Virus record (IMG/VR): IMGVR_UViG_3300042559_001610
Coordinates: 1 to 59,156 of that record
DNA length: 59,156 nt
Reading direction: 5' to 3' (one strand)
Origin: a virus
Lineage: Duplodnaviria > Caudoviricetes
Part shown: piece after piece, positions 1 through 59,156 of the stretch
Numbering within the stretch: the stretch's first letter is position 1
Layout: the number at the start of each line of letters is the position of its first letter
Position numbers and translations under genes: made by a program
The notes under the pieces: generated by a model
The model's input: only the letters and a program-made list of their open reading frames with translations
Database searches by the model: none
What the model was told of the DNA's origin: nothing

Positions 1-3000
1 CAGATGTTCCACTAGATCCTGAAGTTCCTGAAGATCCTGAAGATCCTGAGGTTCCAGAAGAACCGGAAGTTCCTGAAGATCCTGAAGATCCAGAAGAACC
101 TGATGTACCTGAAGAACCTGAAGTTCCACTAGCTCCTGATGATCCACTTGTTCCTGAAGATCCAGATGTTCCTGATGAACCACTAGATCCTGAGAAACCT
201 GAGCTTCCAGATGTTCCTGAGCTTCCAGATGAACCACTTGTTCCACTAGATCCTGATGAACCACTAGTTCCTGAAGAACCAGATGTTCCACTAGATCCTG
301 AAGTTCCTGAAGTTCCTGAAGTTCCTGAGGTTCCAGAAGAACCTGATGTACCTGAAGAACCTGAAGTTCCACTAGCTCCTGATGATCCACTTGTTCCTGA
401 AGATCCAGATGTTCCTGACGAACCACTAGATCCTGAGAAACCTGAGCTTCCAGATGTTCCTGAGCTTCCAGATGAACCACTTGTTCCACTAGATCCTGAT
501 GAACCACTTGTTCCACTAGATCCTGAAGATCCTGAAGTTCCTGAAGATCCTGAAGATCCTGAAGAACCAGATGTTCCACTAGATCCTGATGAACCACTAG
601 TTCCTGAAGAACCAGATGTTCCTGAGGTTCCTGAAGATCCAGAAGAACCTGATGTACCTGAAGAACCTGAAGTTCCACTAGCTCCTGATGATCCACTTGT
701 TCCTGAAGATCCAGATGTTCCTGAAGAACCACTAGTTCCTGAAGAACCAGATGTTCCACTAGATCCTGATGAACCACTAGTTCCTGAAGAACCAGATGTT
801 CCACTAGATCCTGAAGTTCCAGAAGAGCCAGATGTTCCAGAAGTTCCAGAAGAGCCAGATGTTCCTGACGAACCACTAGATCCTGAATTTCCACTAGATC
901 CTGAAGATCCAGATGTTCCAGATGAGCCTGATGTTCCTGATGAACCAGAGGATCCAGAAGTTCCTGATAATCCTGAGGTTCCTGATGTCCCGCTTGATCC
1001 TGATGTCCCCGCGATTGCACCAACTGAGGTTAAGATAAATGAGTAGTATGAATTACCTTCAGTGTAATAAACAACCGACATTGAACTAGATTCGTTACTA
1101 TTAAGATATAGTCTAATAATCATTCGGTTGGTAGGATCGATCGATGTTGTTGGTAATACAATATCCATATTGACCTCAACTGGAATTACTGAAGTAACCC
1201 AACCGATTAGAGAAACGTTTGAGGTTATTGTTGGACCAATAGGAGTTCCTGCTGAATCTGCTAATTGTATTTCAACATAAGCATCAATATCATCATTACT
1301 TGCCTGTTTTAAATAGTGTAAATGAAATCTTTGTACACCACTTGGAATTACACTAAATCCTAATTGAGATGTAATATAATCAGAAACCAATACGTTTTGT
1401 TGATTACTAGTTAAATTGGTTGTTACTGTTTGTTGAGCAGCTCCAGATGGTGTAGTAGAAGCTACTTTATAACCTGAAACATCTGAATTTTGACTTTCGT
1501 TAAGGTAGTATACTTGTCCGGCTGAAATACCATTCTGTCCAGTAGCTCCGGTAGCTCCAGTAGCCCCAGAAGTTCCAGATGATCCAGATGATCCTGATGA
1601 ACCAGATGTTCCAGAAGATCCTGATGAACCTGATGTTCCTGAAGAACCACTTGTTCCAGATGATCCGGAGGTTCCTGATGAACCACTAGATCCTGATGCT
1701 CCTGATGTTCCTGAAGAACCTGATGTTCCTGAAGAACCACTTGTTCCAGATGAACCAGAAGTTCCAGAAGTTCCAGAAGAGCCAGAAGAACCTGATGTTC
1801 CTGAAGAACCTGATGTTCCTGAAGAACCACTTGTTCCACTAGCTCCTGATGAACCACTAGATCCTGATGAACCAGAAGAACCTGATGTTCCTGAAGAACC
1901 ACTTGTTCCACTAGCTCCTGATGAACCACTAGATCCTGATGAACCAGAAGAACCTGATGAACCAGAAGATCCACTTGTTCCAGAAGATCCTGAAGTTCCA
2001 CTAGATCCTGATGCTCCTGAAGAACCACTAGATCCTGATGCTCCTGAAGAACCAGATGTTCCAGAAGATCCACTAGATCCTGAAGCCCCACTAGATCCTG
2101 ATGAACCACTAGTTCCAGATGTTCCTGAAGAACCACTTGATCCACTTGTTCCTGAAGAACCAGAGGTTCCTGAAGATCCTGAAGTTCCAGAAGATCCTGA
2201 AGATCCACTAGTTCCTGATGAACCTGATGTTCCAGATGTTCCAGATGAGCCTGAAGTTCCACTTGATCCGTCTGCTCCTTGAGCTCCCCCTAGATTCACA
2301 TCCCACGAAGGGAATGTTCCGGATCCAAAGATTGATGTAATGTCTCCAACCAGTGCACCTGTTCCGGAGTTATAACTGGTAACAGTTCCCTCCATTCTAT
2401 TAGTAGGTGAGTTTGCAATTACCAGTGATTGTCCTGTAGTATAAGATAACCCTGTTCCTACAGTTAAGCTTTGAGCTCCTGTTGCTATTGTTAAGCTTGT
2501 AACTGAGGTTGTTGCATATCTGTCTCCCGATAGACCAGAAGTTCCTGAAGAACCACTTGTTCCTGAAGAACCGGACGATCCAGAAGTTCCGGAAGAACCG
2601 GATGTTCCTGAAGTTCCAGATGAGCCTGATGTTCCAGAAGAACCAGATGTTCCGGACGATCCAGAAGTTCCGGAAGAACCAGAAGTTCCTGAAGAGCCAC
2701 TAGCTCCCGATGATCCTGAAGAACCAGAGGTTCCTGAAGAGCCACTAACTCCTGATGATCCTGAAGAACCAGAGGTTCCTGAAGAGCCACTAACTCCTGA
2801 TGATCCTGAAGAACCAGAGGTTCCTGAAGAACCAGAGGTTCCTGAAGAGCCACTAGCTCCTGATGATCCTGATGATCCTGAAGAACCAGAGGTTCCTGAA
2901 GAGCCACTAGCTCCCGATGATCCTGATGATCCTGAAGTTCCACTTGTTCCTGAAGTTCCAGATGAACCTGATGAACCAGCATCTCCTGATGTTCCTGAAG

Positions 3001-3045
3001 AACCAGAAGTTCCTGAAGAACCTGACGAACCAGCAGTTCCTCCTG
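1..3045. repeat. 9-bp-period coding repeats (Gly-X-Y) with longer internal duplications
   Basis: Units such as cctgaagaa/ccagatgtt/ccactagat; the block starting at 91 recurs at 334 and partly at 640. Confidence 0.9.
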
Positions 3046-3889
3046 TGATAGTTACAGTAACAAAGTCCCCGTCTGCAGATACAGATTGAACTCCTGCTCC
3101 CGTAAATAAAATTCCGGTTGCTCCGGGGGAAGCTAATCCGGTAGGACCATATATTCCAACAGGAGATCCTGTTCCCCCACCTCCACCAGTAATATTGTCG
3201 GTGATGTAGAGAGTATCTAAGTTGTAGATTGCTTCTTGTGCTCCGTCCTGAAATTCATATCCTAGATCTGCTGAGATCTGCCAAGAAAATAATTTATTAG
3301 GTGTCGGCTCAGAAATTGGATTTTGAACGTCTCCTCCTAGTGGGGTAGTTCCTGAAGCCAATTCTGTCCCAGGCTCATCCCAGGTTAAAAAAAAGTCTAT
3401 GGTCTGTAAAGAAGGATCTGAATTTACAACTTCTGTAATTCTATATTTATGAAATCCTCCAGGGATAGGAAGACCAGTATTATTGTTTACTGAAGAAGTT
3501 AAAATAATAAATCCGGAGGTAATATCCGAAACAGTACTTTGACCGGTAATATCTAAATATTCTGCTCCAGTAACTATGTAATTTCCAGGGGTCTCGAGAA
3601 TTTGAAATGTTGCTGTCCCGGTAGCTCCTGAAATCTCAGAAACTGTAATTTCCCCAAGAAGGGAATCTAGAGATTGAATGTATGCAGTTCCTCCAAATCC
3701 GGTTGAACCTGATATTAGCTGAACTATTTGACCTTCCCTTATGTAGTTAAATTCTCCACTCCCGGTAGGAACCCCTGTTATAACATTACTTCCTATTGAT
3801 AAATCCCCATAGGTAGAAGGAGCCCCCGAGATAGGAACGACAGTTCCATACTCGTAGATTGTTATTCCTCCTGTTATAATGTTTGACAT
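1..3889 (-). CDS. Large tail-fibre/collagen-like virion protein with (Gly-Ser/Thr-Ser)n blocks; 3' end runs off the window
   Basis: Absent from the ORF track because there is no stop in the window. ATG at 3889 (MSNIITGGITIYEYG...), frame consistent down to position 2. Three GSS/GTS triplet blocks (~3040-2535, ~2280-1540, ~1010-1) are separated by globular segments (DRYATTSVTSLTIATG...; ISAGQVYYLNES...). Confidence 0.85.
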   Translation of the reverse strand, partial: MSNIITGGITIYEYGTVVPISGAPSTYGDLSIGSNVITGVPTGSGEFNYIREGQIVQLISGSTGFGGTAYIQSLDSLLGEITVSEISGATGTATFQILETPGNYIVTGAEYLDITGQSTVSDITSGFIILTSSVNNNTGLPIPGGFHKYRITEVVNSDPSLQTIDFFLTWDEPGTELASGTTPLGGDVQNPISEPTPNKLFSWQISADLGYEFQDGAQEAIYNLDTLYITDNITGGGGGTGSPVGIYGPTGLASPGATGILFTGAGVQSVSADGDFVTVTITGGTAGSSGSSGTSGSSGTSGDAGSSGSSGTSGTSGTSGSSGSSGASGSSGTSGSSGSSGSSGASGSSGTSGSSGTSGSSGSSGVSGSSGTSGSSGSSGVSGSSGTSGSSGSSGASGSSGTSGSSGTSGSSGTSGSSGTSGSSGTSGTSGSSGTSGSSGSSGTSGSSGTSGLSGDRYATTSVTSLTIATGAQSLTVGTGLSYTTGQSLVIANSPTNRMEGTVTSYNSGTGALVGDITSIFGSGTFPSWDVNLGGAQGADGSSGTSGSSGTSGTSGSSGTSGSSGSSGTSGSSGTSGSSGTSGSSGSSGTSGTSGSSGSSGASGSSGSSGTSGSSGASGSSGSSGASGSSGTSGSSGTSGSSGSSGSSGSSGSSGSSGASGTSGSSGTSGSSGSSGSSGSSGASGTSGSSGTSGSSGTSGSSGSSGTSGTSGSSGTSGSSGTSGSSGTSGASGSSGSSGTSGSSGTSGSSGTSGSSGSSGTSGSSGSSGSSGTSGATGATGATGQNGISAGQVYYLNESQNSDVSGYKVASTTPSGAAQQTVTTNLTSNQQNVLVSDYITSQLGFSVIPSGVQRFHLHYLKQASNDDIDAYVEIQLADSAGTPIGPTITSNVSLIGWVTSVIPVEVNMDIVLPTTSIDPTNRMIIRLYLNSNESSSMSVVYYTEGNSYYSFILTSVGAIAGTSGSSGTSGTSGLSGTSGSSGSSGTSGSSGTSGSSGSSGNSGSSGSSGTSGSSGTSGTSGSSGTSGSSGTSGSSGTSGSSGSSGTSGSSGTSGSSGTSGSSGTSGSSGASGTSGSSGTSGSSGSSGTSGTSGSSGTSGSSGSSGTSGSSGSSGSSGTSGSSGSSGTSGSSGSSGTSGSSGSSGTSGSSGFSGSSGSSGTSGSSGTSGSSGASGTSGSSGTSGSSGTSGTSGTSGTSGSSGTSGSSGTSGSSGSSGTSGSSGSSGTSGSSGFSGSSGSSGTSGSSGTSGSSGASGTSGSSGTSGSSGSSGSSGTSGSSGTSGSSGSSGTSGSSGTS

Positions 3890-36135: not shown

Positions 36136-36249
36136 TAGTCAGGACAGGATTCGAACCTGCACGTAGTGCTAATCTCTACACAATCTCCACCTTAGCTGGG
36201 ACCGATCTCGTAAGTACCTCTTGTGCGTCTACCATTCCGCCACCTGACT
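36136..36249 (-). ncRNA. AGTCAGG-family tRNA-like RNA (expanded anticodon domain)
   Basis: Leu-type D arm GCGGAATGGTAGACGC, intact T arm, no 7-nt anticodon loop. Confidence 0.7.
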
Positions 36250-37114: not shown

Positions 37115-37139
37115 TTTATTTATCTAAATATACGGTTAG

Positions 37140-37224
37140 TAGTCAGGGAAGGAATCGAACCTCCAACGCAAAACCCGTCTTAACGTGGGTGAACTGCCAT
37201 TTCTCCATTATATGCCACCTGACT
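37140..37224 (-). ncRNA. AGTCAGG-family tRNA-like RNA
   Basis: Acceptor and T arm conserved. Confidence 0.65.
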
Positions 37225-37371: not shown

Positions 37372-37476
37372 TAGTCAGGGCAGGAATCGAACCTGCGAGT
37401 GCTTTGCCATAAAGAGTGCCATTAGCTGTTAATCTCAACCTTGGGAGGTGCCACGTTACCACTACGCCACCTGACT
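37372..37476 (-). ncRNA. AGTCAGG-family tRNA-like RNA
   Basis: Acceptor, D arm and T arm conserved; aberrant anticodon domain. Confidence 0.65.
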
Positions 37477-39431: not shown

Positions 39432-39520
39432 TGGCGGAGAGCTGAGGTGTCGATCCCCATACATTTTTCAGTACCCACAGTTTTCAAGACTGCGACTCAG
39501 GCCGCTGAGTTTAACTCTCC
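39432..39520 (-). tRNA. tRNA-Ser(TGA)
   Basis: Loop CTTGAAA, long variable arm, GCCA end. Confidence 0.85.
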
Positions 39521-39528
39521 ATTTTTTG

Positions 39529-41102: not shown

Positions 41103-41176
41103 TATTACCGCACAGAATCGAACTGAAATTTCCGCAGTGAAGTTGCAGTGTCCTAAACCATTTAGACGACGGTAAC
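41103..41176 (-). tRNA. tRNA-Glu(TTC), atypical loop
   Basis: CTGCA ACTTCAC TGCGG; Glu-type D arm GTCTAAATGGTTTAGGAC. Confidence 0.75.
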
Positions 41177-41281: not shown

Positions 41282-41410
41282 TTATTCAAAAATCTTATGA
41301 AACCCATTTAGACGCTTAAAGCAAATCCAATAGACGATCACCTCAACTTCATGTACGAAGCTTGAGAACGATTTCTCTGATTTCTTTAATATGTTAATTA
41401 AGTTTCTCAT
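41282..41410 (-). CDS. Leader peptide (42 aa) of tRNA operon 1
   Basis: MRNLINILKKSEKSFSSFVHEVEVIVYWICFKRLNGFHKIFE*; GATATATA motif at 41425-41432; terminator just downstream. Confidence 0.8.
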   Translation of the reverse strand: MRNLINILKKSEKSFSSFVHEVEVIVYWICFKRLNGFHKIFE

Positions 41411-41578: not shown

Positions 41579-44500
41579 TTATTTTCTTATCTCCCCTAGC
41601 TTTTGAATTACATCTCCAAAGACTCTAGCCGTTTCGGATCTGTCTACAAATCTGTTATAATCTTTGGGCTTTACGTGAATAGCATAACGATCTGATGCAA
41701 ACACGGAGTTTCCATCAATTCCGGAACTATAATTATCAGGGATTCCAAAATCTTTTGGCCTTTTAAAAGTGTATGCTTGCCCATATGGTATAATGTCCCC
41801 TTTATAGAATAGGAAATCAAAAAGATCCGAAGACATGGCTGGATATTCTTTCCCAGTTATTTCTGTTCCAAATCCAACTCCATTAGGTCCATGTCCAAAT
41901 CCAAAATCTTCTCCAAAGGACCATTTTGTCTTGTGACCTATGTCATGTAGGGTGTCCTGAAGATCTCTAAGTTCTTCTTCTGAGTAGTCTTCAAATACTT
42001 TGATGTGCTTCATTTTTTTAGTTCGTTATAAAATTTCAGAAGAGATTCTGTGTAAGTTTCTTCGTGAGGACCATTTTTAAAAAATTGGTTTGCATAGTTT
42101 GTATTTCCGTCAAAACCATCCCCAGTGATGAGTAGTTCTGGTGATCCCCAGCCTGCGTATGTCGGAATTGTTAAATCAATTTTAACTCCGTTGCTCAGGA
42201 TCAAATGAAGATCTGCAAGAAAGTGAGATCCCATCTCACCATCTACGGAAAGAAGGGCAACGTCACTCTTGTAATTTCTGGCAAATTCTTCTTCTCTATC
42301 TCGTTCCTTTTTATACATTGCATCAGAACGAACATTAAATTTTAAATCGTGATGCCCTATTCCTCTAAGGTCTCCAATTAGATCCCCGAGTTCTTCTTCT
42401 GAGTAGTCTTCAAAAAGTTTAATGTGCTTCATGATTTAAGTTCTGATAAGTATTTTTCAATTTTTAGATATCTTGATTTAGCATTACTCGCATAAAATGC
42501 TATTCTAAATAGGTTTGTTCCAAATAAAGTTATAGCAGCTTTAATTTTTGGATCGGTAAATTGATAATAATTTGCATCTGGATTTGGTTTGGCTATTATC
42601 CCTTTATCCTCTAACTTTTTAATTCCTAATTTAGTGAGATATAAGGGATATCCCTGGCTAGCACCATCATGAAGAGCCGTTCCATATCCAAAATCCCTGC
42701 CCTTTTGAAGGAGTTTGTACTCATGACCAATCCCCTCTAGATCAACTTGGAGTGCCCTAAGTTCTTCGTCTGAGTAGTCTTCAAAAAGTCTAACGTGTTT
42801 CATTTTCTAATAGAAGATAGATAGTCAAAAACCTCCTGAGCAAAATCTTTCTTTATTTTTAGTCTTTCTTCAGTAGAAAGTCTGACGTGGGGTTTTACTT
42901 CAAGAGAATAGTCTCCTTCTGAGGGATCAAAAATACCCTGTTGAAAATAACGATAGACTGAATAGCTTGGGTATTTCAAAGAAAGTCCTACAGAGTCATC
43001 AAAATAAATAGCTCCTGGGGTGTGTGAGTCTCTTTTCATGAGGCCCTTTTTAAGCATATCCTCCACAACTGATTTTTTTATCACCAGATCTTCATATCCT
43101 GTATTTGGTCTTTTCATAAACCACTTCCTTTGCTGCTGTATGTCCTTTCCAAATCCAAAGTCTTCTCCAGGAATAAGCCTGTATGTGTGTCCAATGGTTT
43201 CTAAGTCCCCTAAAAGGCCCTCTATTTCTTCGTCTGAGTAGTCTTCAAATAGTTTGATGTGTTTCATCATATTAGTTTATCATATAGTGAGAGAGCGGAT
43301 AAAATCCATCCTCCTGGATATTCAAACATTTCATCTCCTACGGTTTCTTTGATTTCTTTTCCTCCAGTAAAGATGGTGATGTGTCCTAGATATCTATTAA
43401 AGGAATTATTTCCAGTATTTTTGAATTCAAATTCAAATTTGTCTCCGTTGGATAAATCCAGATTTAGCTGGATATCTTCTGGGTCGTTTTTATTGATTAT
43501 GTGTCCTTCAACTCTAACAACATGAACACCAGGATTTTCTTCAGAAACCCAATTTTCGCATTCATCTTTTTCAACTTTAGGATTTCCCCATGATTTGGAC
43601 AAATCAACATTAAAAATTAGATTGCTGTGACCAACACCTTTAAGATCTCCCATGAGATCTCTAAGCTCTTCTTCTGAGTAGGACTCTTTAAGACCTAGCT
43701 TTGACTTTATTCTTTGCAGAAAGGTTGGGTTTTTACTTCTGGATTTGTTAGCCAAATGACGTTCGTATCTCGTCAGAGCAGCCAAGGTGTGTGGATATTC
43801 CACGATTCCCATGTTATAGTTTTCGTTGTCATATGGGGAGTCGTCTTCATCATCTTCTAAATTGAGTATGGGATTTCCATTGACAGAAAAAGAGACCCCT
43901 TCGTAATTGTCTGTCACTGTTTCGATGACATCACCATTGGAAAGGTTTAGGGCAACAAGAACCTTATTGTCCGGGAGAATTTTGAGAGACCCAGATTTAA
44001 CTTTAATTTCCCCTCCTGGGGTTGGAAAAGACCAGGAATTAACGATGTCCCTCTCTTCTTGTTTATCCTTCTCCTTCATCCCAAATAAATGACCATAGTC
44101 TATATCCATACGAACTTCAGACTGCCCAACAGATCTCAGATCTCCAATGAGGTCCCTAAGTTCTTCATCCGTGTACTCCTCAAATAGTTTAATGTGCTTC
44201 ATCTTCTAAAAATGCTTCTCCTTTAGATTTGATTCCGTCGTAGAGATCAAGACAAGCTCTAACTACACTTCCAGATTCTAATAGCTCCAAATATTTTTCT
44301 TTAACCTCATAGTATCTGTCGTTGAGAGTAAAAGTCCCCTCGTCCTTATTGTCAGATCCTTTGTTTCCAGGCCCAGATTGGTAATAAAAGTAGAGATTAG
44401 CACGGTCACCGTTGGAAAAAACAAAGTCTAGATCAGTAGTTTCCTCGCTGATCTCTCCAGAAACTGATTTCAAGTAGGTACCTGGGCTAGATTTGGATTT

Positions 44501-45374
44501 CCAAAACTCTGCTTGCTTTGCCTCTTCTTCTGCCAATTCTGGATAGTCTATGTGATCTATATCCACCTCGACAACATTATGTCCAATCCCATAAAGGTCC
44601 TTCATCAGAGAATCTAAATCTTCTTCTGAGTACTCCTCAAAAATTCGGATGTGCTTCATTTCATTTAATCTAATATATCAATCGGGCTTCCCTGAAGAGA
44701 TCCATATCCCTTCATTTTTTTTGCTATTTCAACTAGAAAACCCCCTACTTCCTTTTTTCCCTTGAACTTTTTAATTTCCTCTGGACTCATTCCCAGTATT
44801 TTCCCGAGCTTTCCAATAACCGGGTAGAGCATGGCTGGGTTTAACCTGTGAACTTTATTTCCATATCTAGTCCCTATCTTTAGCGGAGATTCTGCAAGTC
44901 CTACTGAGGATAGATCATCTATTAGATCCCCTATCTCTTCTTCTGTGTAGTCTTCGAATAGTTTAATGTGCTTCATTACCTCTTGTTTTTATTGTAGTAG
45001 TCAGACATTTTGAGGTAGAGCTTGTAGAGTGGCTCCTGTTCTATTTTAGAGGTCGACCATCTTTCGTACGTTCCCATTCTCATGGGGCCACTCAGATTGT
45101 ATCTAGCGTGGTCTTCCACTGAGTTTTCATAAAGGTACCAGATCATGTCGTAGTAGTCTCCCTTCGTGTCTATATCAAAGTCTTCTGGGTTGGTGTAGTA
45201 GTCGTATAGGTACTCCGCATAGTCCTCAGCAGACATTCCCCCACCAAATTGGTTTATGAACTTTAGCATGTCCTCTTCTTCTTCAGTCAGAGCATGCCCA
45301 ACCGATCTTAGGTCCCCGATCAGGTCCTTTAGTTCCTCGTCTGAATAGTCTTCAAATAGTTTAATGTGTTTCAT
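41579..45374 (-). CDS. Tandem array of eight MKHIKLFEDYSEEEL..L..DL..IGH proteins (putative capsid-targeted internal proteins)
   Basis: 41579-42013, 42010-42432, 42429-42803, 42800-43270, 43267-44202, 44189-44659, 44665-44976 and 44976-45374 share a ~27 aa N-terminus; the bodies are mostly unrelated. Confidence 0.85.
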
Positions 45375-46612: not shown

Positions 46613-46624
46613 TTGTAAAAAATA

Positions 46625-46764
46625 CAGGATTGGGGTTTTTTTCCTGCTCTAACCAACTGAGCTACTCTGAACGATGCCACTTAAGGCTGTGTTCAAAGGA
46701 AGGACTCGAACCTCCGACCCGGGCATTATAAGTGCATTTTTTTAATTTTTGCTGTAACAATCCT
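46625..46764 (-). ncRNA. Y-RNA-like RNA 1 (stem-ACAGCAA scaffold plus permuted tRNA, TAT loop)
   Basis: AGGATTG/CAATCCT closing stem; T arm precedes D arm. Confidence 0.8.
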
Positions 46765-47120: not shown

Positions 47121-47246
47121 CGGGATCGCATGTTTTTGGCCTGCTGCTCTACCAACTGAGCTACCGGGGATGCCGAAGCATTGTCCCCAGGTGAGACTCG
47201 AACTCACGACCCGCGGGTTGGATTTTTTCGTTGCTGTAACGATCCC
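47121..47246 (-). ncRNA. Y-RNA-like RNA 3 (permuted tRNA)
   Basis: GGGATCG/CGATCCC stem, ACAGCAA, T arm, acceptor closed by a TTCG hairpin, then D arm. Confidence 0.8.
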
Positions 47247-48679: not shown

Positions 48680-48691
48680 ATTTATTTGGGG

Positions 48692-48765
48692 TGGGCCATA
48701 CAGGGCTCGAACCTGTGACCTTGACATTATGAGTGTCCCGCTCTGACCAACTGAGCTAAAGGCCC
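48692..48765 (-). tRNA. tRNA-Ile2/Met(CAT), probably Ile2 reading ATA
   Basis: GGGCC acceptor typical of Ile2, loop CTCATAA. Confidence 0.8.
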
Positions 48766-49516: not shown

Positions 49517-49608
49517 CTGACTAAAAGGGATTCGAACCCTAAACTCCCGCCCTATTGTCTTCCGTTAAGAATATCGTCGGGCAGTGTGCTCCAATACACC
49601 ATAGCCAA
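49517..49608 (-). ncRNA. tRNA-like RNA with expanded anticodon domain
   Basis: D arm GTGT..ACAC, T arm TAGGG TTCGAAT CCCTT. Confidence 0.55.
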
Positions 49609-49657
49609 TCGAGAGTTTCGAACCTCTCAGTTTTAGGTTAATTACTCCTAAAATTTG

Positions 49658-49731: not shown

Positions 49732-49741
49732 ATTTATTTAG

Positions 49742-49848
49742 CCCCTCCAGCTGGATTCGAACCAGCTTACTCGTGGATGAATTCGTCGGGGGATACCGAA
49801 AGGGCGATTCATCCGTCTCTGTGTTTTACCTCATAGAACTACAGAGGG
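49742..49848 (-). ncRNA. tRNA-like RNA with a long hairpin replacing the anticodon arm
   Basis: CCCTCTG/TGGAGGG acceptor, T arm, GGATGAAT/ATTCATCC stem. Confidence 0.6.
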
Positions 49849-49854
49849 ATTTTG

Positions 49855-49965
49855 TACAAAAGGCAGGACTTGCACCTGCATGGTTCGGTTACCCTGTACC
49901 GACCCCTGACGGGGTCACGTCTGTCTATCATCCTTTTTCGAATATGGATGCTTCCGCCACTCTTG
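49855..49965 (-). ncRNA. tRNA-like RNA with D-loop insertion
   Basis: ACAAGAG/CTTTTGT acceptor, GCAGG TGCAAGT CCTGC, GACCCC GTCA GGGGTC. Confidence 0.55.
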
Positions 49966-50102
49966 TATTTTTGGCTTTTCTAATATGTCAAAGAACCAAT
50001 AAAGATTTTTTATTGTCTTTATTGTACCTAAGTATACGGTCTTGTTTCGTAGAACCTAAGAGGAAATTAAAAATTTTTTAATTATTTTTTAATTTCTTTT
50101 TT

Positions 50103-50552
50103 TGGTGGAGCAGGGGGGAATCGAACCCCCGTCTTGTTCAGCTTGTTCAAGGACTCGTTCACATGCTTAGATCAGTTTTTCTAAACTGTCAAAATTTGTC
50201 ACCTGGATTTTTTGACTGATTCCTTGGTGACCGTTTTATCAGCGAACCTTCCGATAGTGTCGATCTGAATGGGTATTGGATTTCTCCTCAAGGTTTCACT
50301 CGGTTTCCACTTGGCGGTACTACAAACCTTTTTCCCGCATGTGAGATTTTCTGTTCCTGGGTAATCTCAAACCCGATGAGAATTAAGCTGCAATAGCTAA
50401 TTCAGCTCCTACTAAAGACATTGCATCTTCAAAGGAGAAAGTTGACTTTTCGCCGTTTACATTTTATATAGGTGATTAAAGAGTTTCCAATACTAACTCT
50501 GCATGCATCATCACGAAAATCAAGAACTGCCAATCGATGCCTGGTCTGCCCC
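50103..50552 (-). ncRNA. ssrA: tmRNA
   Basis: 5' GGGGCAG, 3' T arm plus CTGCTCC-ACCA (G3:U70); tag ORF 50383-50454 ending AIAA*. Confidence 0.92.
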
Positions 50553-50614
50553 ATAAATTAAAGAACTGTTTATCTAATATACGACTATAGATACGGACCT
50601 GTAGAAAATTTCAT

Positions 50615-50647
50615 AAAAAAACCTGAACTTTTTAAAGGTTCAGGCTT
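50615..50647 (-). terminator. Attenuator terminator of tmRNA/tRNA operon 2
   Basis: AAGCCTGAAC-CTTTAAAAA-GTTCAGGTTT-TTTT. Confidence 0.85.
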
Positions 50648-50673
50648 AGTAGAGGATCTTCTATATTTCTATA

Positions 50674-50769
50674 TCACGATATTCGAACTAAGCCTGCAGC
50701 ATCCGGGTTGCCGTCTCCTGTAGTAGAGGCTCCCATCTGATTTATATTTGCTTGACTTATCGAAATCAT
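50674..50769 (-). CDS. Leader peptide (31 aa) of tmRNA/tRNA operon 2
   Basis: MISISQANINQMGASTTGDGNPDAAGLVRIS*; GATATATA at 50792-50799; perfect 10-bp antiterminator 50687-50696/50641-50650. Confidence 0.85.
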   Translation of the reverse strand: MISISQANINQMGASTTGDGNPDAAGLVRIS

Positions 50770-50911
50770 TTTTTAGTTTTTTATTGTTTGTTATATATCA
50801 ATTTGTTTTTAAAGTTTCACATTTTTTTCCACTATAATTGAAAAAAATTGAATTATTTTCCATTTTTTTCCACTAAGGCCACATTTTTTGGAAAAATTTT
50901 CCACTATAGGC

Positions 50912-51523
50912 TTAAGCGAAGAAGGTTTTACCCTCTATATTTGAGATGTCTTGGAGTTTTCCGTCCATTTCAACCGAAAGAATTTTTAGTGGAACCCCTT
51001 TAATGAGGGTTATTTCTTTCTCGTCATCCCCAGTAAAAGGTTCGACGTTGGTGATTAGAGTCTTTTCCCAGTCAACTCCATTCTCAGGAACTTCTGCTTC
51101 TATCAAGACTTTAGATGGCTTGCTGTAGTCACCCCAGTGTGTGTCTGCTGAGTCAGAATCCCAAGTCCAATAGATACCAAGGTGTTTCCCTTCGCGTTCT
51201 AAATGATCAAGCCACGAGCTTGTAACGGTCATTGCTCTCCATATAGTCGCCTTTCCGTTTCGAATAACATCATTTTTATATACGCTAATCAGTTCTTCCA
51301 TCTTATATCTTAGATCATATTCTAACCAATTCAAGAAATCCTCTTGATCTATATCTTCGTCATCAACATCGGTTAGCTGCTCCTCGTCTTTGTAAAGGGT
51401 CATAGCCCATTCGTCTTTAGCTGCCATGTCTTCGACAAAATCTCGGGTAAGAATTGAATCCAGATTTACCGAGGATAAGAGAGACTCGGTGATGAAATTT
51501 TCAAAGAGTGTTAGGTGTTTCAT
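50912..51523 (-). CDS. Hypothetical protein with MKHLTLFENF N-terminus (possible ADP-ribosyltransferase-like fold)
   Basis: IWRAM..GIYWTW..EKEITL; the fold call is tentative. Confidence 0.55.
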   Translation of the reverse strand: MKHLTLFENFITESLLSSVNLDSILTRDFVEDMAAKDEWAMTLYKDEEQLTDVDDEDIDQEDFLNWLEYDLRYKMEELISVYKNDVIRNGKATIWRAMTVTSSWLDHLEREGKHLGIYWTWDSDSADTHWGDYSKPSKVLIEAEVPENGVDWEKTLITNVEPFTGDDEKEITLIKGVPLKILSVEMDGKLQDISNIEGKTFFA

Positions 51524-52457: not shown

Positions 52458-52482
52458 AAAAAACCCCGATTGAATCGGGGTT
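52458..52482 (-). terminator. Intrinsic terminator after Y-like RNAs 6 and 7
   Basis: AACCCCGAT TCA ATCGGGGTT TTTT. Confidence 0.8.
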
Positions 52483-52492
52483 AGAAGTTTGA

Positions 52493-52663
52493 CAGGATCG
52501 TGTTCGTTTATTTCTCCCCGGCGGGATATCTCTCTTTTGACGTCTGAGAATTTGACGGTAACCTTTTTTGAAACTGGAGATTTTACCAGGGTGCTCGATA
52601 AGGACGAATCCTTAATTAAGCTTGCATTGATTAATTGTAGTTAATTTTTGCTGTATCGATCCT
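52493..52663 (-). ncRNA. Y-RNA-like RNA 6
   Basis: AGGATCG-AT-ACAGCAA ... CGATCCT-G with internal hairpins. Confidence 0.7.
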
Positions 52664-52669
52664 TTTACT

Positions 52670-52727
52670 GGTTCCTGTGGGTTTTTCTTAATTTAATTTT
52701 AGGTTTTTAAGTTTGCTGTAAGGAACC
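52670..52727 (-). ncRNA. Y-RNA-like RNA 7
   Basis: GGTTCCT-T-ACAGCAA ... AGGAACC. Confidence 0.65.
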
Positions 52728-52897
52728 TGGGATGTTTTACCATCCAAGATGTTTTACCATCTGTATCTTATATATCAGAACGCTGATTTTGTTTCAATCA
52801 AAAAGAAGGAATTTTTTAAGGATTCCTCCTTTCTTTGGGACTTGATCCGGAGATCAACACCACCACTCTGTTTTAGGAACAGAGAAACCATTATCTC

Positions 52898-59030: not shown

Positions 59031-59156
59031 TTGTATTTTAATTTAAGTAAACAACTGAATATATCTGCAACAGTTAGGTTCAATATTCAATTTTTTCCTT
59101 TCTCATACTTAAATATACGGTCTCTTCTTCAGATCTCCAAACTTTTTTTAAGAAAA

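Follow-up and report, generated by a model that had tools for sequence, protein, structure and literature searches.

Introduction

The leaders trpL, hisL, leuL, thrL and pheL are ribosome-mediated leader-peptide attenuators of amino-acid operons, and the pheM leader of the pheST operon places phenylalanyl-tRNA synthetase under attenuation as well. Arrays of transfer RNA (tRNA) genes and transfer-messenger RNAs (tmRNAs) are common in phages, and the tRNA gene cluster of phage T4 also holds two small stable RNAs, species 1 and 2, of unknown function. To our knowledge, the control of the expression of phage tRNA arrays and tmRNAs is largely unknown, and in those parts of the literature that a full-text search opened up, we found no description of a leader-peptide attenuator ahead of phage tRNA or tmRNA genes. 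Here we describe a unit with the layout of such a leader. It lies on the minus strand at 50820-50615 of IMGVR_UViG_3300042559_001610, a single IMG/VR virus record of 59,156 bases (called the window throughout), upstream of a tmRNA gene and an array of tRNA genes. The completeness estimate of the record is 21%, and the window is thus a fragment of a jumbo phage. We put the probability that the unit is a translation-coupled attenuator of these RNA genes at roughly 0.4, judging from sequence comparison and modelled folds.

Architecture of the unit

The unit consists of the following elements.

50792..50820, minus strand: promoter-like site GTGAAA, 17-nucleotide (nt) spacer, TATATA, the last inside the class 2 motif GATATATAA (50799-50791)
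50674..50769, minus strand: open reading frame (ORF) of 31 codons, ATG at 50769, TGA at 50676-50674, reading MISISQANINQMGASTTGDGNPDAAGLVRIS
50754..50769, minus strand: region 1, the ORF start AUGAUUUCGAUAAGUC, codons 1-6, predicted in prefix folds to pair with region 2 and its 3' extension
50676..50696, minus strand: region 2, the antiterminator 5' arm CAGGCTTAGT (50696-50687, codons 25-28) with the stretch to 50676, the extension pairing with region 1
50641..50650, minus strand: region 3, the antiterminator 3' arm ACTAAGCCTG, overlapping the terminator 5' arm by CCTG
50615..50645, minus strand: intrinsic terminator, GCCTGAAC (50645-50638), a 9-nt loop, GTTCAGGT (50628-50621) and seven T's to 50615

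The segment CAGGCTTAGT is the exact reverse complement of ACTAAGCCTG, so that ten perfect pairs can form. When the upstream 138 nt were shuffled with their dinucleotides kept, a perfect complement of at least 10 base pairs (bp) that overlaps the terminator 5' arm arose once in 5000 shuffles (P = 0.0002). This helix is present in the minimum free energy (MFE) structure of 50610-50775 (-40.9 kcal/mol; 3 of 200 shuffles were as stable). The terminator stem has 8 pairs, and the isolated hairpin reaches -9.6 kcal/mol. A sequence-only reading of the window had already proposed the ORF with its position and translation, the perfect 10-bp helix and the hairpin with its T-run, and all three were borne out by our analysis. 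A scan for sigma-70 promoters and terminators listed neither the promoter-like site nor the terminator of the unit; the latter was missed because the scan admits loops of 3-8 nt only. The assignment of the -35 element and its spacer is our own reading of the sequence. The class 2 site lies 21 nt upstream of the leader ATG with no earlier AUG in between, and the ORF therefore opens at the first AUG past the putative transcription start, after an A-rich untranslated lead.

Like the trpL-type leaders, the unit has a short ORF between a putative promoter and an intrinsic terminator, alternative 1:2, 2:3 and 3:4 pairings, a stop codon between regions 2 and 3, and a predicted outcome that is set by the position of the ribosome. 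Unlike them, it lacks a tandem run of regulatory codons, its region 1 holds the start codon itself, its downstream genes are RNA genes (tmRNA and tRNAs) instead of biosynthetic enzymes, a promoter-like motif follows its terminator, and the phage uses A-rich leads without a Shine-Dalgarno sequence. As with pheM, a component of the translation apparatus would be placed under a leader peptide that reports tRNA charging; pheM, however, serves one amino acid and a bacterial protein-coding operon, whereas the phage unit has RNA genes as targets and a mixed codon set. T-box riboswitches, too, sense tRNA status via a choice between terminator and antiterminator upstream of translation-related genes, as the unit might, but they bind tRNA directly and need no ORF, and no Rfam family, T-box included, matched 50553-51000 at expectation values (E) up to 1. 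The unit also resembles species 1 and 2 of T4 in being a small structured element beside phage tRNA genes; it differs from them by its own promoter-like site, its terminator and its conserved ORF.

Predicted folding and a possible switch

All fold results are thermodynamic predictions, with the ribosome simulated as a 28-nt mask. In the window, the antiterminator is the predicted fold when no ribosome is present or when the P-site lies at codons 3-14; a mask anywhere from codon 18 through the stop gives the terminator (7/7 pairs). Prefix folds of the window and of its one close relative, the contig L114 described below, predicted that region 1 pairs with region 2 before region 3 has been transcribed. 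In the resulting rod, region 2 and the bases that follow it pair with the ORF start (AUGAU:AUCGU, UUCGA:UCGAA and UAAGUC:GGCUUA). The ORF, helix and terminator of the sequence-only reading do form a conserved unit, but the switch that it proposed was incomplete, as it missed this 1:2 pairing between the ORF start and the ORF end.

In the untranslated RNA, the 1:2 rod together with the terminator is the MFE structure in L114 and lies within 1.4 kcal/mol of it in the window. The RNA is more structured than its shuffles in both cases (z = -2.95 in the window, -3.67 in L114). The U-tract was excluded when the energies of the two states were compared, since the hybrid still contains it when the choice is made. 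Under this condition, antiterminator minus terminator amounted in the window to +0.7 kcal/mol without a ribosome and to -3.3 to -3.8 kcal/mol with the ribosome at codons 4-12. In L114, the difference was +11.6 kcal/mol without a ribosome, -1.5 to -2.7 kcal/mol at codons 4-8, and +4.8 to +11.6 kcal/mol from codon 12 onwards. Because the 1:2 pairing forms first, termination and not read-through is the predicted default in L114. The modelled preferences correspond to those of the trp leader, in that RNA left untranslated or translated to the end would be terminated and a ribosome held on region 1 would allow read-through.

In the mechanism that we propose, 50820-50615 would be one transcription unit with its own promoter-like site, an ORF of 29-31 codons and an intrinsic terminator, giving an RNA of ~170 nt with four mutually exclusive regions: the ORF start (1), the ORF end with codons 25-31 (2), ACUAAGCCUG (3) and the terminator 3' arm (4). 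In untranslated RNA, 1:2 would fold first and leave 3:4 free to terminate. A ribosome held on the first ~10 codons would occupy region 1, regions 2 and 3 would pair, and transcription would go on through the tmRNA gene and tRNA array. Once at the stop, a ribosome would cover region 2, and the terminator would form. Slow translation of the leader would in this way bring extra read-through transcription of the ribosome-rescue and tRNA genes of the phage, in addition to transcription from the promoters of these genes themselves, perhaps at a time during infection when only class 2 promoters (see below) fire.

Conservation in a DNA relative and in public peptide data

The 203-residue protein encoded upstream of the unit has 39 homologue clusters with 52-91% identity in the protein collection. 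The sole informative relative obtained as DNA is L114, a contig of 2601 nt on which the neighbouring protein of this type is 62% identical. It carries the whole unit, after an extra inserted gene, and the tmRNA follows. The ATG is found at the same place and opens an ORF of 29 codons (MFSISTANTRQQGNASPAGDGRPCQVGLS), which differs from that of the window by the insertion of one whole codon and by a 1-nt indel between GACGGCA and the heptamer GGCTTAG. The region 1 segment TTTCGATAAGT is identical at 11/11 positions and CTAAGCCTGAACC, around region 3, at 13/13. The antiterminator 5' arm region reads GGGCTTAG in L114, with GGCTTAG conserved. In both sequences the stop codon lies past region 2, ~25 nt before region 3. 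The loop between the helix arms (36 nt in the window) is poorly conserved and 7 nt shorter in L114; the terminator stem is identical and its loop different. Conserved arms with a variable loop have the look of a functional helix, but no compensatory change accompanies them (see below).

Searches for additional DNA relatives covered several collections. The alignment A2 led to 49 metagenome and 24 IMG/VR loci, of which only L114 was close enough (62%) and carried the unit, and to 2 distant loci among genome contigs. The INPHARED phage collection gave no match. Queries of IMG/VR with the 203-residue protein alone, the tmRNA 5' 26-mer, the terminator pattern and the ORF-start pattern returned nothing useful for the leader, and neither did the promoter-plus-tmRNA pattern in metagenome contigs or the terminator pattern in genome contigs. 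BLAST of the leader region against 50 virus records gave short A-rich matches only, and against 22 further records nothing. The closest relatives of the RtcB-like protein encoded upstream (63-69% identity, L002-L006) had no tRNA or tmRNA genes in the fetched loci and no homologue of the 203-residue protein. Relatives of the latter with 81-91% identity are known as proteins, and their DNA was found in no collection searched. In the more distant phages L007 (14420-14540), L076 and L104, the tmRNA is preceded by a gene, a terminator and a Bacteroidota-type promoter (TTG ... TATATTTG), with no small ORF.

The leader peptide and its variants are called as genes in a public protein collection, where we counted 16 distinct core peptides on 53 contigs. 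Type A comprises seven forms on 36 contigs, with the exchanges T17K, S15P, G26C and I30L, 10 contigs on which the C-terminus is ES rather than RIS, and a single 44-residue stop-loss form. Type B comprises nine core forms on 17 contigs, which vary at positions 6 (T/Q/I), 10 (R/G), 14 (N/F), 15 (A/T), 22 (R/N) and 25 (Q/H/Y/L). The two types share 57% identity; in the variant P0043, residues 1-28 are identical. The length of the frame is kept at 29 or 30-31 codons, the stop-loss form excepted, in a survey that sees intact called ORFs only and is thus biased towards open frames. Exchanges as radical as these argue against a functional peptide and would fit a leader whose peptide sequence does not matter. 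The peptide is hydrophilic, of low complexity and rich in G, S, T, N, D and A, and neither it nor any of the three small peptides tested had a match in Pfam. A type I toxin mRNA was considered and rejected, as it would need a small hydrophobic membrane peptide.

Codon content and the downstream tRNA genes

The first RNA gene 3' of the unit is the tmRNA gene.

50103..50552, minus strand: tmRNA gene (Rfam RF00023, 75.4 bits, E = 1.7e-27, full model)

It is followed by 12 tRNA genes at 49731-46214, assigned by ARAGORN to Met (three), Asn, Thr, Ser (two), Gln, Asp, Pro and Gly (two), that is, 8 nominal specificities. Over its whole length, the CAT tRNA at 48690-48765 shares 80% identity with Escherichia coli genes annotated as tRNA-Ile, and Ile is therefore acceptable as an extra specificity. 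The genes for tRNA-Ile(CAT) and tRNA-Ser(GCT) adjoin.

Codons 1-26 of the leader ORF use M, I, S, Q, A, N, G, T, D and P only. The sequence-only reading had noted this correctly and had equated the ten residues with ten specificities downstream, which is overstated in view of the 8 nominal ones plus Ile and of the missing tRNA-Ala. A 26-residue run of these ten letters is the third longest in the window, after runs of 259 and 36 in ORFs of 1296 and 313 residues; the next is 16. With the 8 detected specificities alone, the longest run falls to an unremarkable 9. The codons ATT, TCG (twice), GCN (four times) and, read strictly, ACT and GGC (twice) are not read by the anticodons of the array.

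We then compared the codons of the ORF with those that the array can read. By strict wobble rules, 17/30 leader codons are readable, against a fraction of 0.339 in 60 long genes (binomial P = 0.0086). Dinucleotide shuffles of the ORF gave a mean of 9.5 readable codons (P = 0.0019), the two other frames have readable shares of 0.21 and 0.31, and ~1% of the 199 small ATG ORFs of 25-60 codons in the window reach the share of the leader ORF. In L114, 17/28 codons are readable by the tRNAs of the window's array (P = 0.0024). These P values are optimistic, because the hypothesis arose from the same data. A frame-specific enrichment of array-read codons exists, and it is moderate. A degenerate tRNA inside the ORF, suggested by GTTCGAAT, was also considered; it had no support from ARAGORN or Rfam, and the stretch is missing from L114.

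A similar unit precedes the second tRNA array of the window, which begins at 41176.

41282-41410, minus strand: sister ORF (leader 1) of 42 codons, following a GATATATAA site and preceding a terminator (~41255-41225) and tRNA-Glu

Leader 1 sits in a rod-like fold (z = -3.42), and its peptide was not found in the protein collection. The second array reads 29 of its 41 codons (shuffle P = 0.0002), a share that one of 10,849 windows of real genes reaches. Each ORF is depleted in codons of the other array: 4/30 codons of the leader ORF are read by the second array and 6/41 codons of leader 1 by the first.

Promoter-like motifs and flanking signals

Two strand-specific motifs of the window resemble promoters. 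Class 2, [GA]ATATATA[GA], includes the site of the unit. Of the ATATATA[GA] copies, 15 are on the gene strand and 2 on the opposite one, and most stand 3-6 nt before gene ATGs. Further class 2 sites on the minus strand include 52454, 48550, 45531, 41073, 27989, 27007, 26151 and 19086, and others, and one lies upstream of each tRNA sub-array (50798, 48550, 41431, 41073). In L114 the promoter-like site is TTGAAA-17-TATATA, and across both sequences the class 2 motif stands 21-22 nt before the ATG. Three repeats are found 5' of the promoter-like motif of the unit.

50906-50897, 50875-50866 and 50834-50825, minus strand: three exact direct repeats TAGTGGAAAA

These are the only exact copies in the 59-kb window (27 matches with at most one mismatch against 9.9 expected), and all three recur in L114 at similar spacing. 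They are probably protein-binding sites or upstream promoter elements. As a general promoter motif, TAGTGGAAAA was rejected, since exact copies are confined to the three here.

The variant GATATATAA precedes both leader units and one RNA without a leader ORF.

52465-52775, minus strand: ORF-less RNA unit of ~300 nt with TTGAAA-17-TATATA(A), a strong terminator, z = -4.98 and the direct repeat GGTAAAACATC

The sole ORF from its first AUG has 6 codons, and no Rfam family matched it. This unit is a candidate new non-coding phage RNA beside RNA-repair genes.

Class 1, ACCGTATATTtaAatA, was searched for with a position weight matrix (PWM) built from 15 CGTATATT sites with full flanks, and hits above a score of 12 were counted. 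The gene strand yielded 20 hits and the opposite strand 1. By hand count, 12 of those on the gene strand have an ATG 0-15 nt past their end, and four more precede RNA genes. The hits on the minus strand are at 59129, 57351, 55327, 50593, 50048, 48819, 41555, 41464, 39440, 38575, 37878, 37144, 33108, 31098, 30390, 24937, 16676, 12602, 7899 and 7586. One lies between the terminator of the unit and the tmRNA gene.

50570..50593, minus strand: class 1 promoter-like motif, core TCGTATATT (50584-50576), PWM score 14.2

Within this site, TCGTATATTAGAT is identical to L114 at 13/13 nt. Among the fetched loci, a comparable class 1 density is seen only in L114, with 3 copies of CGTATATT in 2.6 kb on one strand. 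Seven other loci were listed for CGTATATT, six of them with 3-4 copies in 6-16 kb. The positions of both classes suggest promoters that would give leaderless or short-leader RNAs, phage-specific ones in the case of class 1, and the phage may have two promoter classes.

A third motif, TTTGA[CA]ATATTAGAAAA, stands 4-5 nt before RNA genes and is related to a sequence that abuts the tmRNA.

50553..50567, minus strand: 5'-flank motif AGTTCTTTAATTTAT, abutting the mature tmRNA 5' end
49992-49976, 48785-48769, 41197-41181 and 40011-39995, minus strand: TTTGA[CA]ATATTAGAAAA sites

The 19-mer of this motif together with GGGG occurs exactly in 33 IMG/VR loci in varied context; in these phage loci it is found downstream of Bacteroidota-type promoters or directly after coding regions. 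Either sequence may be a processing signal or an RNA-gene promoter.

A possible attenuator and its alternatives

Four structural parts of an attenuator are present, namely the ORF, the terminator, the antiterminator and the anti-antiterminator, behind a putative promoter and start. The unit has neither clustered regulatory codons nor target genes that depend on read-through, and for this reason we do not file it as a proven attenuator. In favour of an attenuator are the improbable helix and where it lies, a four-region layout that two diverged sequences have in common, with the stop between regions 2 and 3 in each, a first-AUG ORF that stays open, a peptide free to vary and the frame-specific codon enrichment. 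The findings that follow weigh against that function. In the leader ORF, a mixed enrichment takes the place of a tandem run of a single codon. A class 1 motif, kept in L114, follows the terminator, and more class 1-like sites lie just past the tmRNA gene (50048) and inside the array (48819); the terminator can thus not be the sole gate, and read-through is not needed for expression. The earlier claim that the ribosome's position decides the fold holds for the modelled folds of the window, which switch as predicted, but in the full-length MFE structure of L114 the terminator persists wherever the ribosome is placed. For this relative, one of the outcomes that the sequence-only reading had itself named as refuting has thus come about. 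The arms of the helix are kept in L114, but 8 pairs remain there, both end pairs being lost to mismatch and one A-U pair having become G-U, and between the window and L114, the only pair available for comparison, no compensatory change was found in the 2:3 or the 1:2 helix. RNAalifold of the two sequences supported the terminator and small hairpins only, with 1 double change in 27 consensus pairs. Substitutions between the two ORFs are spread over codon positions 1, 2 and 3 (9, 9 and 12 in a hand alignment), and by our reading the 1-nt indel puts the conserved GGCTTAG into a different codon register, which together indicate that the constraint is mainly on nucleotides. For leader 1, the antiterminator pairing is not significant (6 pairs with G-U, P = 0.73), and no ribosome position prevents the terminator from forming; the likeness of the two units thus speaks for a link of codons to tRNAs, not for a shared switch. 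The ORF-less unit shows that the phage does make stand-alone small RNAs from the same type of promoter. Concerning the ten specificities, 10-13 of the 30 leader codons are not readable by the array, and ARAGORN found no tRNA-Ala gene in it for the 4 Ala codons of the ORF; tmRNA is charged with alanine without decoding Ala codons. The restriction to the ten residues did not survive the comparison with relatives, in whose version of the segment F, R, C, V, H, Y, L and K appear and in-set and out-of-set residues freely replace one another (N/F, R/G, R/N, Q/H/Y/L). The variants thus seem to be under no pressure to stay within the proposed set. The class 2 sites upstream of each tRNA sub-array, on the other hand, would leave a role for the unit if the promoter classes differ in timing.

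Several of these findings would suit a stand-alone gene for a small structured RNA of ~170 nt, consisting of the rod-like hairpin and the terminator, in which the ORF is incidental and the 2:3 complementarity a by-product. We regard such a gene as somewhat unlikely. Its structure would account for the z values, for the rod plus terminator being at or near the MFE, and for conservation in nucleotide blocks irrespective of codon position, with GGCTTAG read in two frames; the ORF-less unit offers a model for it, and the tmRNA and the tRNAs have promoter-like motifs of their own. A perfect 10-bp complement to the terminator arm, seen in one of 5000 shuffles, is not expected of such an RNA. Nor are the frame from the first AUG, which stays open over 29-31 codons in either type and in every one of the 16 variants except the stop-loss (a count biased by its restriction to called ORFs), and the frame specificity of the codon enrichment, and no Rfam family was found for it. 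If the peptide itself were the product and the terminator merely ended its mRNA, one would understand why the ORF is called as a gene on 53 contigs, why its identity between types (57%) is near that of the neighbouring protein (62%), and why residues 1-28 are identical in P0043. Such a small protein gene is very unlikely, however, given the radical exchanges N/F, R/G, R/N, Q/H/Y/L, T/K and G/C, a C-terminus that varies freely (RIS, RLS, ES or S), a conserved heptamer read in different frames, substitutions that are not concentrated at third codon positions, and a hydrophilic, low-complexity peptide without a Pfam match. A chance ORF in the 3' untranslated tail of the upstream operon, where hairpin and T-run would end the RtcB, 306-residue and 203-residue genes and nothing would be sensed, seems highly improbable. 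No terminator lies between the stop of the 203-residue gene (50912) and that of the unit, L007 has a terminator and then a promoter after the gene that precedes its tmRNA, and the window contains 199 small ATG ORFs; but L114 preserves the entire 300-nt spacer in blocks despite the gene inserted upstream there, the unit has a promoter-like motif and repeats of its own, the 10-bp helix has a shuffle P of 0.0002, and the codon match is extreme among those 199 ORFs.

The attenuator could also take a strict form, included in the estimate of roughly 0.4, in which the codons are exactly those of ten downstream specificities and the lack of any one of the corresponding charged tRNAs would turn the array on. 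The frame-specific match of both ORFs of the unit to the first array and of leader 1 to the second, the mutual depletion and the conserved UCG-AUA-AGU in region 1, with the adjoining tRNA-Ile(CAT) and tRNA-Ser(GCT) genes, speak for this form. The missing tRNA-Ala, the unreadable codons, the free swapping of residues in relatives, a sister unit without a switch and the optimism of P values for a hypothesis formed after seeing the data speak against it, and we consider it quite unlikely. In a further reading, which we consider unlikely as well, though less so than the strict form, the leader-peptide attenuator would sense stalled ribosomes on behalf of the translation-support module of the jumbo phage. 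Ribosomes would pause on codons that need phage tRNAs, such as AUA and AGU in the conserved UCG-AUA-AGU, the polymerase would read through, and ribosome rescue and tRNA supply would rise just when host tRNAs run short or have been cleaved by host defences. The upstream genes for an RtcB-like protein, an RNA ligase and a phosphoesterase would fit such a tRNA-cutting conflict.

If the unit is an attenuator, it would be the first case of translation-apparatus RNA genes gated by ribosome position, and it would provide a testable link between ribosome stalling, tRNA depletion (including anticodon-nuclease defence) and a phage counter-measure. If it is a stand-alone small RNA instead, the phage would still have, next to its tmRNA gene, a new and conserved RNA whose promoter is elaborate. 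The three strand-specific motifs, two of them promoter-like and one flanking RNA genes, are useful for annotating the ~390 kb genomes of this uncultured group.

Genomic setting and further observations

Near-identical DNA occurs in 15 lake-water metagenome DNA runs, which contain 94-100% of the sampled words; five RNA runs contain 6-16%. Every long ORF of the window is on the minus strand. The genes 5' of the unit encode the RtcB-like protein (phrog_850, E = 4.6e-155), an RNA ligase, a metallophosphoesterase, an integrase-like protein and two proteins without a known family (306 and 203 residues). The first tRNA array is followed by a block of MKHIKLFEDY paralogues and then by the second array. 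The block consists of eight tandem paralogous genes at 41579-45374 (minus strand) with the common N-terminus MKHIKLFEDYSEEEL..L.GDL..IGH; an IMG/VR scan with a pattern and an alignment of these paralogues found no relatives. An open-ended ORF at 2-3889 (minus strand), of at least 1296 residues, includes the 259-residue run, made up of small and polar residues, along with numerous TAGTGGAACA repeats, and encodes a repetitive, low-complexity protein.

Further RNA-like elements were noted, all on the minus strand. At 49741-49970 and 49520-49650, inside the array, T-arm-like GGTTCGAA hairpins occur where standard ARAGORN calls no tRNA; these stretches may be unusual or intron-bearing tRNAs, or other small RNAs. 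A weak Rfam match to permuted tmRNA is found at 49891-50130 (E = 0.21). Also within the tRNA array, 47143-47214 and 46615-46744 match the Rfam model of YrlA (Y RNA-like) below threshold (38 and 34.8 bits, gathering score 69); the phage has an RtcB-like protein as well. Four tRNA-like elements of 86-114 nt (37139-37224, 37372-37476, 36136-36249 and ~35900), two of them detected by Rfam only, have the common acceptor-stem ends AGTCAGG ... CCTGACTA and look like a paralogous family of long tRNA-like RNAs. Finally, a tRNA with a long variable arm at 39435-39521 was called Ser(TGA) by low-threshold ARAGORN and scored 47.5 bits with the Rfam model of tRNA-Sec, whose gathering score is 47.

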